A stretch of 64,000 nucleotides of DNA, from assembly GCF_056746865.1 (NCBI RefSeq), contig NZ_CM163382.1, one strand, 5' to 3'. The notes under the pieces are model-generated. The model was not told where the DNA came from, did not search any database, and was given only the letters and a program-made list of their open reading frames with translations. The stretch's first letter is position 1, and every line of letters starts with the position of its first letter. The translations under genes and the position numbers were made by a program. Below are positions 51,601-64,000 of the stretch, in pieces.

Positions 51601-51720
51601 ATGTCTGGCAGTTCCCTACTCTCGCATGGGGAGACCCCACACTACCATCGGCGCTACGGCGTTTCACTTCTGAGTTCGGCATGGGGTCAGGTGGGACCAC
51701 CGCGCTACTGCCGCCAGACA
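51601..51720 (-). rRNA. rrfF: 5S rRNA, distal copy of rrnD
   Basis: 120-nt match to E. coli 5S rRNA on the minus strand; 5' end reads UGUCUGGCGGCAGUAGCGCGG. Confidence 0.95.
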
Positions 51721-51757
51721 AATTCTTTTCTAATCTGCCGAACTTTAACCTAAAAAG

Positions 51758-51833
51758 TGGTGCTGATACCCAGAGTCGAACTGGGGACCTCACCCTTACC
51801 AAGGGTGCGCTCTACCAACTGAGCCATATCAGC
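51758..51833 (-). tRNA. thrV: tRNA-Thr
   Basis: Reverse complement reads GCTGATATGGCTCAGTTGGTAGAGCGCACCCTTGGTAAGGGTGAGGTCCCCAGTTCGACTCTGGGTATCAGCACCA. Confidence 0.95.
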
Positions 51834-51845
51834 ACGCTAAATTTG

Positions 51846-51965
51846 ATGCCTGGCAGTTCCCTACTCTCGCATGGGGAGACCCCACACTACCATCGGCGCT
51901 ACGGCGTTTCACTTCTGAGTTCGGCATGGGGTCAGGTGGGACCACCGCGCTAAGGCCGCCAGGCA
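51846..51965 (-). rRNA. rrfD: 5S rRNA, proximal copy of rrnD
   Basis: 120-nt match to E. coli 5S rRNA; 5' end reads UGCCUGGCGGCCUUAGCGCGG. Confidence 0.95.
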
Positions 51966-52056
51966 AATTCTGTTTATCAGACCGCTTCTGCGTTCTGATT
52001 TAATCTGTATCAGGCTGAAAATCTTCTCTCATCCGCCAAAACATCTTCGGCGTTGT

Positions 52057-54961
<2,905 letters not shown>

Positions 54962-55144
54962 TCACAACCCGAAGATGTTTCTTTCGATTCATCATCGTGT
55001 TGCGAAAATTTGAGAGACTCACGAACAACTTTCGTTGTTCAGTGTTTCAATTTTCAGCTTGATCCAGATTTTTAAAGAGCAAAACTTCGCAGTGAACCTT
55101 TGCAGGTACACTCTGAAGTATTTTTTATTTAATCACTACAGAGA

Positions 55145-55220
55145 TGGTGGAGCTATGCGGGATCGAACCGCAGACCTCCTGCGTGCAAAGCAGGCGCTCT
55201 CCCAGCTGAGCTATAGCCCC
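55145..55220 (-). tRNA. alaU: tRNA-Ala (spacer tRNA)
   Basis: Reverse complement reads GGGGCTATAGCTCAGCTGGGAGAGCGCCTGCTTTGCACGCAGGAGGTCTGCGGTTCGATCCCGCATAGCTCCACCA. Confidence 0.95.
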
Positions 55221-55262
55221 ATAACATGTAGTTAAAACCTCTTCAAATTTGCCGTGCAAATT

Positions 55263-55339
<77 letters not shown>

Positions 55340-55407
55340 GTAGAGGTTTTACTGCTCATTTTCATCAGACAATCTGTGTGAGCACTGCAAAGTACGCTTC
55401 TTTAAGG

Positions 55408-56949
<1,542 letters not shown>

Positions 56950-57074
56950 AAAAGTTTGATGCTCAAAGAATTAAACTTCGTAATGAATTACGTGTTCACT
57001 CTTGAGACTTGGTATTCATTTTCGTCTTGCGACGTTAAGAATCCGTATCTTCGAGTACCCACACAGATTGTCTG

Positions 57075-57095
57075 ATAAATTGTTAAAGAGCAGTT
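57075..57095 (-). promoter_or_regulatory. rrn leader boxA antitermination element (GCTCTTTAACAA)
   Basis: Reverse complement of TTGTTAAAGAGC in the rrsD leader. Confidence 0.6.
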
Positions 57096-57130
57096 GCGAC
57101 GCGGCTTTCAGCTCACTGTCGCGAGGTGGC

Positions 57131-57160
57131 GTATATTACGCTTTCCTCTTTCAGAGTCAA
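57131..57160 (-). promoter_or_regulatory. rrnD P2 promoter (-35 TTGACT, 16-bp spacer, -10 TAATAT, GC discriminator)
   Basis: Minus strand reads TTGACTCTGAAAGAGGAAAGCGTAATATACGCCACC. Confidence 0.7.
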
Positions 57161-57240
57161 CCCTGAATTTCAGGATTTTTTCTCTTTGTTGTTACGACCA
57201 TCTTGTGAAGTGTTTCACGTTGTCGTCTCAACGGAGGCGC

Positions 57241-57268
57241 ATTATAGGGATCCCAATTTTTTGCACAA
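57241..57268 (-). promoter_or_regulatory. rrnD P1 promoter (-35 TTGTGC, 16-bp spacer, -10 TATAAT, GCGCC discriminator)
   Basis: Minus strand reads CTTGTGCAAAAAATTGGGATCCCTATAATGCGCCTCC. Confidence 0.7.
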
Positions 57269-57400
57269 GTACTTTTTTGATCTTTTTTTCTGTTTGTTGT
57301 TTTTTCACCCTTTTTGCTGCATTCGCACACAAAACGGTGCTTTTTTGCATACTAAAAGACTTGCACAAGGCCAATAATGCACCCAAAGTCATTAGGAAAT
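57269..57400 (-). promoter_or_regulatory. A/T-rich UP element and probable Fis-site region upstream of rrnD P1
   Basis: Phased A/T tracts upstream of P1; inferred by analogy with rrnB P1. Confidence 0.45.
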
Positions 57401-57420
57401 CATTTATTGTTGAGGTGAGT

Positions 57421-57975
57421 ATGTCTGATGTTTTACGCCCATACCGCGATCTTTTTCCACAAATCGGTCAGCGCGTAATGATCGACGATAGCAGCGTCGT
57501 GATTGGTGACGTTCGTCTGGCTGATGATGTGGGGATCTGGCCGCTCGTTGTGATTCGTGGAGATGTACATTATGTACAGATCGGAGCACGCACCAATATC
57601 CAGGATGGCAGTATGTTGCATGTCACTCATAAATCCTCGTACAACCCAGATGGCAACCCATTAACCATTGGCGAAGATGTCACTGTTGGTCACAAGGTGA
57701 TGCTCCACGGCTGCACCATTGGCAATCGAGTTTTGGTTGGGATGGGCTCAATTTTACTTGATGGCGCAATAGTAGAAGATGATGTGATGATTGGTGCGGG
57801 TAGTCTGGTCCCACAAAATAAACGGCTGGAGAGCGGATATCTGTATCTCGGTAGCCCCGTCAAACAGATCCGCCCGTTAAGTGATGAAGAGAAGGCTGGG
57901 TTACGCTATTCCGCGAATAATTACGTGAAATGGAAGGACGAATATCTGGATCAGAGTAACCAGACCCAGCCTTGA
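57421..57975 (+). CDS. yrdA: YrdA, gamma-carbonic-anhydrase-like hexapeptide-repeat protein
   Basis: 184-aa product MSDVLRPYRDLFPQIGQRVMIDDSSVVIGDVRLADDVGIWPLVVIRGDVHYVQIG... with GAGGTGAGT Shine-Dalgarno. Confidence 0.9.
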   Translation: MSDVLRPYRDLFPQIGQRVMIDDSSVVIGDVRLADDVGIWPLVVIRGDVHYVQIGARTNIQDGSMLHVTHKSSYNPDGNPLTIGEDVTVGHKVMLHGCTIGNRVLVGMGSILLDGAIVEDDVMIGAGSLVPQNKRLESGYLYLGSPVKQIRPLSDEEKAGLRYSANNYVKWKDEYLDQSNQTQP

Positions 57976-58208
57976 TCATCTTCACTTTGTTCCTGAATTA
58001 AGTTTTCCGCTTCTTCTTCCAGGTCCCAGCGATGCTGACGAAAACTCGCTAACCACTGTTCTGGCGTATCTCCAGTAAAGCGATACGCCAGACTCTCGCC
58101 AGAGATCGCGCATGTCAGTTGCATACCATTCACGAGAGCGGGAAAACATACACATTTTTTATTCTCGTCCCACTCTTCCCTATCCGGAAACTGGATGGCC
58201 TGATTCAC
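57951..58208 (-). CDS. yrdB: YrdB, small DUF1488 protein
   Basis: 85-aa [47 protein letters not shown]... Confidence 0.85.
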
Positions 58209-59023
58209 GCTGACAACTCCTGTTGCAATAGTTTGATGACCGGTTCTACATCAGGCAGAACGCCATGCCAAAGAAGGAAGGCATGAGCCGCCTGTGCCAC
58301 CAGCATTCCTAAACCATCAGCATTACGCTTTGAGCCTCGCTGCTCACACCATGCCAGAAAAGGAGTTTTTCCTTTCTGATAGAACATGTCATAGCAATAA
58401 ATGCCAGGATGAATGAGCGATGACGGGATCGCCGGAATATCACCACTGATGCCACTGGATGTTGCATTAATAATGAGATCAAACTCATGACCTTCCAGTT
58501 CGTCCATACCCAACGCCTGAATACTGCCAGTGTGCGCAAACAATTTAGTCAACTCTTCTGCGCGAGATACCGTCCGATTAGTGATTGTCACCGCACAGTC
58601 CAGGGAAAGGAGTGGCAGTAGTACGCCGCGAGATGCTCCACCAGCGCCAATGAGCAGAATACGTAAACCAGGACGGATAAAAGACAGACGTTCCAGATCG
58701 CTTAACAAACCTATACCATCGGTATTGTCACCCAGCAGGCGTCCATCTTCTAACCGCTTGAGGGTATTAACAGCACCAGCCAACGCTGCCCGTTCAGTAA
58801 GCTCATCCGCTCTGGCAAAAGCCTCTTCTTTAAAAGGTACCGTCACATTCGCACCTTTACCACCAGCACTAAAGAAAGCGTTCAGTGTGTTGATGAAATC
58901 ATTGATGGGTGCCAACACGCGCCCATAGGGATGTTCAATATTCAGTTGCTGAGCAAATTGCTGATGAATGAATGGCGATTTGCTGTGGGCTATCGGATTA
59001 CCAAAAACAGCATAGGTTTCCAT
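58205..59023 (-). CDS. aroE: Shikimate dehydrogenase
   Basis: 272-aa product [39 protein letters not shown]...; the track ORF is extended 5'. Confidence 0.95.
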
Positions 59024-59027
59024 TATG

Positions 59028-59600
59028 TTACCCCTGTCGAAACAGTTCACCCGTCAGGGCATCGCGGATTTCTGAAGGATTTAAACGCCCCCCCGTTTCA
59101 CCAGGCACAACCGGGAACGCCGCGCCAAATTGTGCGCGAACTTCGTCTACTGTTCGACAAGGTGGCAATCCACTCAAGTTGGCACTGGTAGAAACCAGCG
59201 GTTTACCATAAGCCTGGCACAAAGCAACCACCAACGGATGGTCGGTGACTCGTACAGCAAGCGAATCAAAGCGGCCCGTCAACCAGCGCGGTGTTGTCGC
59301 AGGCGCGGGAAAGACAAAGGTGACAGGACCTGGCCAGCGGGAAAAAATGGTTTCACGCTGCGCATCAGTCAGCATGGTGTCATCAATATAGGGTTTAAGC
59401 TGCTCGTAATTTGCTGCGATTAAAATCAGCCCCTTATCAACCGGACGCTGTTTTAACTCCAACAGTCTCATCACTGCTATTTCGCTATCAGGATCACACC
59501 CAACACCGAAAACGGCTTCCGTTGGATAGGCGATGACACGTTCTTCATTGAGAACATCTATCGCAGCTGCGATAGCGTCTCCTTGCAGGTTATTATTCAC
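59028..59600 (-). CDS. tsaC: TsaC (YrdC), threonylcarbamoyl-AMP synthase
   Basis: 190-aa product from a GTG start ([40 protein letters not shown]...); the longer track ORF is an upstream extension. Confidence 0.88.
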
Positions 59601-59604
59601 GTTA

Positions 59605-60147
59605 TTATTCCGCCGAAACCGGCTTTCCACATTGTTTACTGGCACAAAAGTGTTTTACACCCTGCGCGGTTTTCTTTTCGATGAGTAGCGGATAATGACA
59701 CTCAGGGCATTCTCCAGCTATGGGTTTGAAGTTAATGGCAAATTGACACTCCGGGTAGCGATCACAGGAGTGAAACGTTTTGCCATAACGGGAGCGGCGC
59801 TGGACCAGATGGCCCGTCCGGCATTGGGGGCATGTAATTGCTGTTTCGTCCGGTTTATCGATAAGTTCGGTATGTTCGCATTCAGGGTAGTTACTGCAAC
59901 CAATAAACATACCAAAGCGTCCCTGGCGTAATACCAGATTTGCGCCACATGCAGGGCAAACCTGCCCCTCCAGAACTTTGACGATATGTCCATCCGCTGA
60001 AGATTTCAGAGGACGGACGTAGTCACACGCCGGATACTGTGAGCATCCAAGAAACGGACCGTGTTTCCCGGATCGAATAACCAGTTCAGCCCCGCACTTT
60101 GGGCAGGACTCATTATTACGCACCGTGAACAGTGCTGATTTTGCCAT
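59605..60147 (-). CDS. yrdD: YrdD, topoisomerase-type C4 zinc-ribbon DNA-binding protein
   Basis: 180-aa ORF with repeated CPxCG...C zinc-ribbon motifs. Confidence 0.9.
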
Positions 60148-60175
60148 AACAACTTATGCTGAATTAAAGAAATGA

Positions 60176-60649
60176 TTAATGCAGCATACCTTCATTCACT
60201 TCAAAGAGTAATTCTTCCATTTGCTGGTACGCATTTTCGCAGCCCGGAATATTGAACAACACCATCAGGATTACCCATTTCAGGTCTTCCAGGTCGAACT
60301 CTGCGGTATCCAGCGCGAGCACTCGCTCTATCACCATTTCACGGGTTTCAAGGTTAAGCACCTGAATTTGCTCAAGGAAAAGCAGAAAACCACGACAGCT
60401 GGCATCCAGCCTTTCACACTCTTCAGGGGTATAAATACGCATGGAGAGTGGATCAGAGGCCAGTTGCATCGGTTCTGCCAGTCCTTCCTGATAATCCGCA
60501 AGCTTTTCCAGCCAAAGCAGGGCATTGTAGATATCTTCTCGATCAAATCCTGCGTCGGTAAGATCCTGTTCAAGTTTGTCTTGATCCACACGCAACTCAG
60601 CTTCTGTGTGAATATAGGTTTCAAACAAATACATTAGTACGTCGAACAT
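60176..60649 (-). CDS. smg: Smg protein (DUF494)
   Basis: 157-aa [53 protein letters not shown]... Confidence 0.9.
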
Positions 60650-61745
60650 GGCATGCCCTCCTCAATCGGACATAGCCGCCGGGTACAGCTGCGATCCATC
60701 CTGCTAACTCCAGTTCGAGTAGTTGAGTTACTACCTCTGGCACAGGTTGGCCGGCACGTTCAGCGACGACGTCAACAGGTGTTACCTCATCTCCTACGTT
60801 AGCCAGGAGCTCAGGAAATGGCAATGCCACGTCTTCCTGATCTGGTGAATAAAATGAATTTTCAGGGGCGTCTGGCAACCAGTGCAATCCAAATTGCAAG
60901 TTTTCCAGAATTTCTTCCGGTTCCGTCACAAGAATCGCACCTTGTTTTATTAACCAGTGAGGCCCTTCGCTTCCCGGATTCCCTAATGGACCCGGCAAGG
61001 CAAAAACTTCACGTCCCTGCTCAAGCGCACAACGTGCTGTCACCAGCGAACCACTGCGCAAAGCCGCTTCCACCACCAGTACACCTTTACTTAGACCACT
61101 GATAATGCGATTTCTTCGTGGGAAATTGTAAGCAAGGGGAGGAACATCGAGGGGAAATTCCGAGACAAGAGCCCCACCATGTTCAAGCAAACTGGTAGCC
61201 AGTCGGGCATGGCGACGCGGATGAATGGTATTAAGTCCATTCCCTAATACAGCAATGCTGACGCCATTTACCTGTAAGGCCGCTTTATGCGCCACACCAT
61301 CGATTCCACGCGCCAGTCCACTCGTAATTGTCACTCCACGCGTCGCCAGAGTTTCGCAAAATAATCGTCCCCATCGCTCGCCATACCATGAATGCGCCCG
61401 ACTCCCCACTACGGCAAGCTGAAATGAATGCAGCGCGTGCAGTTCTCCTTCAACAAACAGTGCGCCGGGGTAATCTGTCGTCGCAAGAAGTTGAGGAGGA
61501 TAAAATTCGCTGTCCGCAGGGATTAAATGATGGTTGGGTTGCTCCAACCAACAAAGTGAGCTTTCGATACTCTTTCGCGGAAATGAAAGAAAGCGTTGTG
61601 CCTGCCGCAATGTAAGCCCTGTTTGCTGCAATACAACCGCATCAATATACGACTGTTTTGCCAGCCAGTGAGCTATACGGACCATATCATCGCCGTACAA
61701 GCTGCTGATGCTCATTAAACGCAGCCAAATTTCTGTATCGACCAT
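60621..61745 (-). CDS. dprA: DprA (Smf), DNA-processing protein A
   Basis: 374-aa [36 protein letters not shown]...; 3' end overlaps the smg start by 29 nt. Confidence 0.93.
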
Positions 61746-61874
61746 CCTTATCTCCCTGCCATAAGCAGCCTTAGCAATCTTTGCGATTGGTCAGTGATGC
61801 TGTCAATCAGAGGGGGATTTGTCTAGAATAGAAGAAATAATCTTTCTAACTCCTGAACACATCTCTGGAGATTT

Positions 61875-62384
61875 ATGTCAGTTTTGCAAGTGTTACATAT
61901 TCCGGACGAGCGGCTTCGCAAAGTTGCTAAACCGGTAGAAGAAGTGAATGCAGAAATTCAGCGTATCGTCGATGATATGTTCGAGACGATGTACGCAGAA
62001 GAAGGTATTGGCCTGGCGGCAACCCAGGTTGATATCCATCAACGTATCATTGTTATTGATGTTTCGGAAAACCGTGACGAACGGCTGGTGTTAATCAATC
62101 CGGAGCTTTTAGAAAAAAGCGGCGAAACAGGCATTGAAGAAGGTTGCCTGTCGATCCCTGAACAACGTGCTTTAGTGCCACGCGCAGAGAAAGTTAAAAT
62201 TCGCGCCCTGGACCGCGACGGTAAACCATTTGAACTGGAAGCAGACGGTCTGTTAGCCATCTGTATTCAGCATGAGATGGATCACCTGGTCGGCAAACTG
62301 TTTATGGATTATCTGTCACCGCTGAAACAACAACGTATTCGTCAGAAAGTTGAAAAACTGGATCGTCTGAAAGCCCGGGCTTAA
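61875..62384 (+). CDS. def: Peptide deformylase
   Basis: 169-aa [27 protein letters not shown]... with [14 protein letters not shown] and HEMDH motifs. Confidence 0.97.
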
Positions 62385-62398
62385 GGATAAGAACTAAC

Positions 62399-63346
62399 GT
62401 GTCAGAATCACTACGTATTATTTTTGCGGGTACACCTGACTTTGCAGCGCGTCATCTCGACGCGCTGTTGTCTTCTGGTCATAACGTCGTTGGCGTGTTC
62501 ACCCAGCCAGACCGACCGGCAGGACGCGGTAAAAAACTGATGCCCAGCCCGGTTAAAGTTCTGGCTGAGGAAAAAGCTCTGCCCGTTTTTCAACCGGTTT
62601 CCCTGCGTCCACAAGAAAACCAGCAACTGGTCGCCGATCTACAGGCTGATGTTATGGTTGTCGTCGCCTATGGCTTAATTCTGCCTAAAGCAGTGCTGGA
62701 GATGCCGCGTCTTGGCTGTATCAACGTTCATGGTTCACTGCTGCCACGCTGGCGCGGTGCTGCACCAATCCAACGCTCACTATGGGCAGGTGATGCAGAA
62801 ACTGGTGTGACCATTATGCAAATGGATGTTGGTTTAGACACCGGTGACATGCTCTATAAGCTCTCCTGCCCGATTACTGCAGAAGATACCAGTGGTACGC
62901 TGTACGACAAGCTGGCAGAGCTTGGCCCACAAGGGCTTATCACCACATTGAAACAACTGGCAGACGGCACGGCGAAACCAGAAGTTCAGGACGAAACTCT
63001 TGTCACTTACGCCGAAAAGTTGAGTAAAGAAGAAGCGCGTATTGACTGGTCGCTTTCGGCAGCGCAGCTTGAACGCTGCATTCGCGCTTTCAATCCATGG
63101 CCAATGAGCTGGCTGGAAATTGAAGGACAGCCGGTTAAAGTCTGGAAAGCGTCGGTCATTGATACGGCAACCAACGCTGCACCAGGAACGATCCTTGAAG
63201 CCAATAAACAAGGCATTCAGGTTGCGACTGGTGATGGCATCCTGAACCTGCTCTCGTTACAACCTGCGGGTAAGAAAGCGATGAGCGCGCAAGACCTCCT
63301 GAATTCTCGTCGGGAATGGTTTGTTCCGGGCAACCGTCTGGTCTGA
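62399..63346 (+). CDS. fmt: Methionyl-tRNA formyltransferase
   Basis: 315-aa ORF (GTG start) [46 protein letters not shown]... Confidence 0.97.
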
Positions 63347-63391
63347 TAGTCCACTCTTCTAAGCCCGGTCTTGCCGGGCATTTTTATACTT

Positions 63392-64000
63392 ATGAAAAAA
63401 CAACGTAATTTACGTAGCATGGCGGCCCAGGCCGTTGAACAAGTCGTCGAGCAAGGGCAATCATTAAGCAACATTCTGCCACCGCTCCAGCAAAAAGTTT
63501 CCGATAAAGACAAAGCACTTCTTCAAGAGTTGTGCTTTGGCGTACTGCGTACGCTTTCGCAGTTAGACTGGCTGATTAATAAGTTAATGGCCCGTCCGAT
63601 GACCGGCAAACAGCGGACCGTGCATTACCTGATTATGGTTGGTTTGTATCAACTGCTTTATACCCGCATTCCACCTCATGCTGCGCTGGCTGAAACGGTT
63701 GAAGGTGCTGTCGCAATTAAGCGCCCGCAACTTAAGGGGCTGATTAACGGCGTGTTACGCCAGTTCCAACGTCAGCAAGAAGAGTTATTAGCCGAGTTTA
63801 ATGCCAGTGATGCATGTTATCTGCATCCTTCCTGGTTACTGAAACGTCTGCAAAAAGCGTATCCAGAGCAATGGCAATCCATCGTTGAAGCCAATAACCA
63901 GCGTCCGCCAATGTGGCTGCGCGTTAATCGTACGCATCATTCCCGCGACAGCTGGCTTGCATTGCTGGATGAAGCAGGAATGAAAGGTTTCCCGCATGCG
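63392..64000 (+). CDS. rsmB: RsmB (Sun), 16S rRNA m5C967 methyltransferase, N-terminal 203 codons; continues beyond window end
   Basis: Translation from ATG 63392 gives [66 protein letters not shown]..., open to the window edge. Confidence 0.9.

Follow-up and report, generated by a model that had tools for sequence, protein, structure and literature searches.

This study concerns a window of 64,000 nucleotides (nt) of Escherichia coli DNA (contig NZ_CM163382.1 of RefSeq assembly GCF_056746865.1; the window is this whole stretch, along which all positions are numbered) in which six minus-strand genes, dprA, smg, yrdD, tsaC, aroE and yrdB, converge on the plus-strand gene yrdA. The overlaps of dprA with smg (29 nt), of aroE with yrdB (4 nt) and of yrdA with yrdB (25 nt) are essentially invariant across Enterobacteriaceae. 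Judging from the aligned sequences, the two longer overlaps appear to be explained by protein-length and coding constraints, because the stop codons are fixed and the tails of DprA and YrdA follow the conserved ends of Smg and YrdB. We consider it very probable that the locus is the standard enterobacterial arrangement, with dprA-smg-yrdD-tsaC-aroE-yrdB co-oriented, lying end to end and converging on yrdA.

Junctions and gene content of the cluster

Gene coordinates were taken from the RefSeq annotations of strain 118UI, which is 100% identical over this part of the window, and of K-12 MG1655, and were converted to window positions. Junction distances were recomputed from the sequence and the listing of open reading frames (ORFs), and they agree with the PGAP annotation and the curated K-12 annotation. 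A prediction made earlier from the sequence alone (hereafter the original prediction) had given dprA and smg 29 nt in common, and this is what annotation and recomputation return: the dprA 3' end lies on the smg 5' end, on the same strand, at 60621-60649 (-29 nt). It had also placed tsaC 4 nt from each of its neighbors, and both spacings are indeed +4 nt on the minus strand (yrdD/tsaC between 59600 and 59605, tsaC/aroE between 59023 and 59028). The smg/yrdD junction, between 60147 and 60176 on the same strand, measures +28 nt. The predicted ATGA-type overlap of the aroE stop with the yrdB start is correct in its length of 4 nt (58205-58208, minus strand) but not in its letters, since the junction reads GTGA both here and in K-12. 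Thus yrdB is the second GTG-initiated gene of the cluster besides tsaC.

The convergent overlap of the yrdA and yrdB coding sequences (CDSs) occupies 57951-57975 on both strands, at the same coordinates in annotation, sequence and original prediction. Both stop codons are TGA, and within the 25 nt the two frames are set so that third codon positions lie opposite one another. A single nucleotide polymorphism (SNP) inside this overlap, A at window position 57955 where K-12 has G, accounts for YrdA G178S and YrdB P85L together. Just before tsaC, yrdD terminates with tandem in-frame stops, TAATAA (59596-59611 region, minus strand). Had the starts and stops of reference genomes removed the overlaps the prediction would have failed, and those of 118UI and K-12 in RefSeq keep them all. 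We conclude that the boundaries of the genes, their overlaps and their start codons are correct and stand in existing annotation. The overlap and start-codon features of the cluster are common and not statistically unusual.

All seven gene identities were confirmed by Pfam, with matches far above the gathering cut-offs. yrdA (57421-57975, plus strand, 184 aa, ATG) encodes a gamma-carbonic-anhydrase-like hexapeptide protein (Hexapep) that is near-identical to the solved E. coli YrdA structures 3TIO and 3TIS. The minus-strand genes are yrdB (57951-58208, 85 aa, GTG; DUF1488 over residues 5-84), aroE for shikimate dehydrogenase (58205-59023, 272 aa, ATG; Shikimate_dh_N, Shikimate_DH and SDH_C), tsaC for threonylcarbamoyl-AMP synthase (59028-59600, 190 aa, GTG with a weak Shine-Dalgarno sequence, SD; Sua5_yciO_yrdC), yrdD (59605-60147, 180 aa, ATG without an SD), smg (60176-60649, 157 aa, ATG; DUF494 over residues 1-157) and dprA, also named smf (60621-61745, 374 aa, ATG; SAM_SMF, DNA_processg_A and DprA_WH). 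YrdD matched only Zn_ribbon_Top1, three times, and consists of three topoisomerase-I-type C4 zinc ribbons without a Toprim or Topo IA core.

Several complete E. coli chromosomes match the 4.7-kb region around the cluster at 100% identity, and the locus is found at ≥95% identity in 5,425 of 5,426 complete E. coli genomes. In K-12 MG1655 (b3279-b3284 and b4473) the genes, their order and orientation, CDS lengths, junctions and start codons are all alike, with only point differences (97.9% identity over 4,325 nt, zero indels). Longest-ORF calling over-extends three genes: yrdA to 57094-57975 (plus strand, 293 aa from a TTG), tsaC to 59028-59645 (minus strand, 205 aa) and aroE to 58205-59050 (minus strand, 281 aa). 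Conservation backs the annotated starts of all three, and proteomics those of yrdA and tsaC.

Conservation across Enterobacteriaceae

A scan with TsaC, one genome per species, yielded 80 Enterobacteriaceae loci from genera that include Escherichia, Citrobacter, Salmonella, Enterobacter, Klebsiella/Raoultella, Kosakonia, Cedecea and Atlantibacter. Genes were relocated by tblastn, and the start codon nearest to the aligned N-terminus was chosen. The arrangement, which had been described as conserved from the window alone, is kept throughout these 80 species. The dprA/smg overlap is -29 nt in 77/77 species, the aroE/yrdB overlap is -4 nt in 78/79, and the yrdA/yrdB overlap is 25 nt in 74/79. The yrdB start position is kept in 79/79 species, as ATG in 39, GTG in 39 and TTG in 1, and about half of the related species have the ATGA form of the aroE/yrdB overlap. 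The tsaC start is GTG in all 80.

The spacings vary more freely, from +1 to +8 nt at tsaC/aroE and from +22 to +28 nt at smg/yrdD, and yrdD/tsaC takes the values -11, -8, -4, +1, +3 or +4. This last variation arises from point-mutational drift of the yrdD stop codon, without indels, and YrdD ranges from 180 to 185 aa. We also considered a tandem duplication of 12 nt where yrdD meets tsaC, which was suggested by the 9-mer AATAATAAC flanking the tsaC GTG on both sides and by the +4 and -8 states lying 12 nt apart. It was ruled out: the aligned junctions of the 80 species are equal in length, and a CAA-to-TAA point change marks drift of the stop codon. One sampled locus (L046, CACSKA010000021.1) is titled 'Chryseobacterium sp. 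18061', although its yrdA...dprA locus is typical of Enterobacteriaceae and close to that of 'Citrobacter sp. 18056' (L035) from the same project; the assembly is probably mislabelled or contaminated.

Probable coding constraints at the longer overlaps

At the dprA/smg overlap the Smg N-terminus is invariant in 75/77 species, and the DprA tail (N/D/H, F/L, V/I) varies only at synonymous sites of smg. A similar pattern is seen where yrdA and yrdB converge. The YrdB C-terminus, Q/H-G-W-[V/I/F/Y/L]-W-L-S, falls within the DUF1488 model and its substitutions are conservative. The opposing YrdA tail, N-Q-[T/I/N/Y/S]-Q-P, varies radically and in step with YrdB, the residues V/I/F/Y/L being paired with T/I/N/Y/S. 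Distant gamma-carbonic-anhydrase structures align to YrdA only up to about residue 170-176, and the YrdA tail for this reason looks lineage-specific.

The stop codons leave a mark on the partner gene. The amino acid of the yrdB codon that supplies the yrdA stop may be D, N, A, S, Y, V or E, yet the third position of this codon is T in 76/79 species. In the three exceptions (L033, L040 and L050) the third base of this yrdB codon is changed (GAG) and yrdA is extended by 244-286 nt. On the other side, the yrdA codon opposite the yrdB stop specifies any of D, A, S, N, G, R and T, yet ends in T in 79/79 species. The adjacent yrdB Asp codon is free at its wobble position, with GAC in 50 and GAT in 28. 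In two further species (L044 and L047) the yrdA stop is lost through the neighboring yrdB codon and yrdA is extended by 15 nt, to 189 aa.

All five of these stop losses are changes within the yrdB Asp-Gln codons that abolish the yrdA TGA. The three loci with the long extension belong to Phytobacter and Kosakonia sp. S29, where the extended yrdA ORF of 257-271 aa runs antisense through all of yrdB.

We propose that in each of the longer overlaps the C-terminal tail of one gene enters the strongly constrained end of its neighbor, either the Smg N-terminus or the C-terminal GW[VI]WL motif of YrdB, and that the residues of the tail would be passively dictated by the codons of that neighbor. The 25-nt length of the convergent overlap would then be held by purifying selection on both TGA stops. 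Since both stops are under such selection, each would fix one wobble T in the partner gene.

Start codons and possible translational coupling

The original prediction had read tsaC as starting at GTG and had proposed ribosome profiling as a check, which published K-12 data already provide. In the supplement of the N-terminomics study TRAINSPOTTER (PMC13245402), the N-terminal peptide MNNNLQR, Ribo-RET and INRI-seq agree on this GTG, as does the annotation. The same source confirms the ATG start of yrdA by the N-terminal peptide MSDVLRPYR together with Ribo-RET and INRI-seq, and the ATG start of yrdD by an N-terminal peptide and INRI-seq. The tsaC GTG start is thus both invariant among the sampled species and experimentally confirmed in K-12. 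This invariance, set against the free exchange of ATG and GTG at yrdB, suggests that a weak tsaC start may be under selection.

Duplex energies with the anti-SD sequence differ widely among the six starts. Against a background with a mean of -2.2 and a 5th percentile of -6.3 kcal/mol, we obtained -12.7 kcal/mol for smg, -8.2 for dprA, -6.9 for yrdB, -6.6 for aroE, -5.0 for tsaC and -1.0 for yrdD. The very strong smg SD, GAGGAGGG, sits inside dprA. A K-12 RNA 3' end mapped at 3432463 (minus strand; window 60648), scored as not Rho-dependent, coincides with the second base of the smg start codon, inside the dprA/smg overlap and just after this sequence; it may mark a site of pausing or a decay end protected by the ribosome.

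From this geometry, termination-reinitiation coupling would be favored along yrdD, tsaC, aroE and yrdB, because the junctions are +4, +4 and -4 nt and tsaC combines a weak or absent SD with a GTG start. The yrdD/tsaC, tsaC/aroE and aroE/yrdB junctions share the classic geometry of such coupling, as seen at ATGA, GTGA and TAANNNNATG junctions. In contrast, the 29 nt of dprA/smg exceed the typical range, and with its very strong internal SD smg would initiate independently, or with facilitation, within dprA. The yrdD start probably uses the A/U-rich 28-nt spacer that precedes it. Taken together, both translational coupling and transcriptional interference are plausible given this anatomy.

Transcript ends of yrdA and yrdB

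The original prediction held that the yrdA and yrdB mRNAs would be antisense to each other at their ends and named Term-seq as the way to locate these ends. Published K-12 Term-seq data (Adams et al. 2021, PMC7815308, supplements), whose 61-mers we placed on the window by a single offset of 3,371,815 throughout, put the yrdA 3' end inside yrdB and so bear out the antisense overlap. The yrdA mRNA end at K-12 3429912(+) corresponds to window 58097, and its 61-mer has 0 mismatches to the window. The yrdA 3' untranslated region of K-12 accordingly spans 57976-58097 (plus strand), 122 nt beyond the stop and wholly antisense to yrdB, and the yrdA transcript overlaps the yrdB CDS by at least 147 nt.

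In K-12 the yrdA mRNA ends 5 nt after a hairpin at 58060-58092, which forms a perfect 11-bp stem with an 11-nt loop and lies within yrdB codons 39-50 (the L-A-Y-R and D-T-P-E codons). Its folding energy is -17.9 kcal/mol (z -4.5), and the window contains 23 inverted repeats of ≥10 nt, this one included. The hairpin is partly conserved, with 71% of cells paired in the 80 species against 28-45% in slid controls. As regards intrinsic termination, a G+C-rich stem-loop and a nearby 3' end are present and a U-tract is absent.

Bicyclomycin (BCM) data in the same supplements (PMC7815308) define Rho-dependent termination regions on both strands. The plus-strand region, at K-12 3430172(+) (window 58357), is antisense to aroE and has a Rho score of 5.0 (p 2e-11); the minus-strand region, at K-12 3429916(-) (window 58101), lies inside yrdB with a Rho score of 2.5 (p 2e-7). 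Coverage at the latter without BCM is 98 upstream and 79 downstream, which indicates that RNA of the minus strand extends across antisense yrdA. Within yrdA, past the yrdB stop, the K-12 Term-seq data report no discrete minus-strand 3' end.

Two candidate terminators at the convergent junction were rejected. A consensus scan made no call for a classic intrinsic terminator near 57951-57975 (its total calls were not above the shuffled expectation), nor did it place an intrinsic terminator at any junction of the cluster. A 10-bp long-range inverted repeat, AAGGCTGGGT (~57892-57901) and ACCCAGCCTT (~57964-57973), could have formed a stem across the overlap, but it has a 62-nt loop and a fold z of only -1.7, and by a rough estimate about six such repeats are expected per window by chance.

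Because no intergenic space separates yrdA from yrdB, each of the convergent transcripts would have to end inside the partner gene. We propose that the yrdA end is associated with the hairpin and Rho-dependent, and that the end of the yrdB operon would be Rho-dependent or diffuse. The result would be an excludon-type antisense overlap, any regulatory effect of which is putative.

Convergent neighbors with overlapping transcripts fit the descriptive definition of an excludon, and in K-12 yrdA and yrdB are such a pair. They are named among the 165 convergent excludons of MG1655 and are found in at least 50% of 58 transcriptomes (ExcludonFinder, NAR 2025, PMC12288877). Like the excludons of that study in general, yrdA-yrdB has a very short intergenic distance, in its case a negative one, and the listing derives from RNA-seq coverage only. 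Antisense control of yrdA has one published test (Dornenburg et al. 2010, PMC2912661), which concerned a different, internal antisense RNA and was negative: mutation of its promoter within yrdA left yrdA::lacZ unchanged in K-12. The -10 element of that promoter, CATAAT, is present in this strain at window 57574-57569 on the minus strand.

Comparison with the dprA-smg-topA operon

In Neisseria meningitidis dprA, smg and topA are co-transcribed, and beta- and gammaproteobacteria widely keep the three genes in synteny (Hovland et al. 2017, PMC5817196). The E. coli cluster likewise has dprA directly followed by smg and then by a topoisomerase-I-related gene. It differs in that this third gene, yrdD, carries zinc ribbons only and no catalytic domain, and in that the cluster continues with tsaC, aroE and yrdB. 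Co-transcription of the E. coli genes is putative.

Flanking regions

Upstream of yrdA, a complete rrnD-type operon occupies 51603-56949 on the minus strand, in the order 16S, tRNA, tRNA, 23S, 5S, tRNA and a second 5S. Rfam matched StyR-44 at 54969-55077, directly upstream of the 23S rRNA. No Rfam RNA family was found within 57000-64000, and only the rRNA operon and tRNAs were matched upstream. A very abundant orphan Term-seq 3' end, K-12 3428984 (minus strand), falls at window ~57162-57174 at the hairpin CCTGAAATTCAGG; this coordinate is approximate, as the window differs from K-12 by what is, by eye, one A fewer in an A-run. The orphan end lies just upstream of a promoter-like site, TTGACT-16-TAATAT, which we take to be rrn P2, and it may come from a short transcript of the upstream rrn P1 promoter.

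Beyond dprA, RefSeq annotates def (61875-62384) and fmt (62399-63346) on the plus strand. A promoter-like site for def-fmt, CTGTCA-18-TAGAAT at 61800-61834, fits the SMRT-Cappable-seq transcription start site at K-12 3433649 (window 61834). Its -35 overlaps back to back a perfect minus-strand TTGACA (61806-61801) that could be the -35 of dprA, though the -10 downstream of it is poor. A CRP-S (Sxy-dependent) site between dprA and def was also considered and discarded, with zero matches to TGCGA-N6-TCGCA within 2 mismatches.

Discussion

Several results weigh against parts of the account given above, that is, against the minus-strand genes as one unbroken unit and against the hairpin as a terminator. 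The SMRT-Cappable-seq supplements gave zero gene-name matches and, searched by coordinate, only def-fmt in this region, so direct evidence for six E. coli genes on one mRNA was not found in those tables. K-12 Term-seq places minus-strand 3' ends inside smg (3432256, window 60441), yrdD (3431798, window 59983, scored Rho-dependent) and tsaC (3430924, window 59109, 86 nt upstream of aroE), none of them a terminator at a gene boundary. These internal ends suggest attenuation or processing within the cluster, and the unit may on their account be attenuated or have internal promoters. At the yrdA end, the hairpin stem is followed by CUCUCGCC and no U-tract, the consensus terminator scan made no call, and a 9-nt deletion has removed the hairpin from the Enterobacter clade. 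Because of the missing U-tract and this loss, the hairpin may be only a barrier to 3' trimming. Finally, the transcript and N-terminal data are those of K-12, whose cluster differs from the one studied here at the level given above and is identical to it at the mapped yrdA 3' end.

The yrdA/yrdB overlap might instead be a functional regulatory excludon, in which antisense pairing, polymerase collision or RNase III cleavage makes expression of yrdA and of the distal tsaC-aroE-yrdB operon mutually exclusive, or it might insulate the rrnD promoters from read-through. The extent of the transcript overlap over yrdB, the place of the pair in the core E. coli excludon list (PMC12288877), the limitation of read-through by Rho on both strands, the overlap length kept in 74/79 species, the partly conserved hairpin within yrdB and the rrn promoter region directly downstream of antisense yrdA would all be in keeping with such a role. 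The fixed stops and the conserved YrdB C-terminus, though, are coding constraints that fully cover the conservation of the overlap, and we found no reciprocal-expression data for yrdA and yrdB. Moreover, yrdA::lacZ was unaffected by mutation of the internal antisense promoter (PMC2912661), and with 165 convergent transcript overlaps and 75 convergent CDS overlaps in E. coli, arrangement alone is no proof of regulation. We regard a regulatory role as unlikely. A more specific version, in which the 25-nt overlap, the hairpin and Rho form a selected module for bidirectional termination or insulation that sets the output of TsaC, AroE and YrdB against that of YrdA and/or shields rrnD P1/P2, would draw its support from conservation, which the coding constraints already appear to explain, and seems to us very improbable.

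There is hardly any chance that the overlaps are annotation artefacts caused by miscalled starts or stops. GTG starts, as at tsaC and yrdB, and a start without an SD, as at yrdD, do sometimes accompany miscalled starts, and the mechanical ORF calls for yrdA (293 aa), tsaC (205 aa) and aroE (281 aa) are spuriously long. Against this, the stop codons are unambiguous and N-terminal peptides confirm the tsaC GTG and the yrdA and yrdD ATGs. All species share the start positions of yrdB and smg, with invariant N-terminal residues and Pfam models that reach the N-termini, and PGAP and the curated K-12 annotation concur. This explanation is largely refuted.

The original prediction expected little novelty, and rightly so, as the essentials are annotated or published: public sources already give the genes, their boundaries and start codons, the 3' end of the yrdA transcript and the listing of yrdA-yrdB as an excludon. 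The locus matters little for discovery. It serves as a clear illustration, useful for teaching, of what keeps overlaps in place: opposed TGA stops fix wobble bases of the partner, tails follow a constrained neighbor, and one SNP, at 57955, alters two proteins. Among the genes of the cluster, tsaC has been described as an essential gene of E. coli. To delete or recode the 3' end of yrdA, yrdB, dprA or aroE, or to insert a reporter there, is unavoidably to alter the neighboring gene as well.

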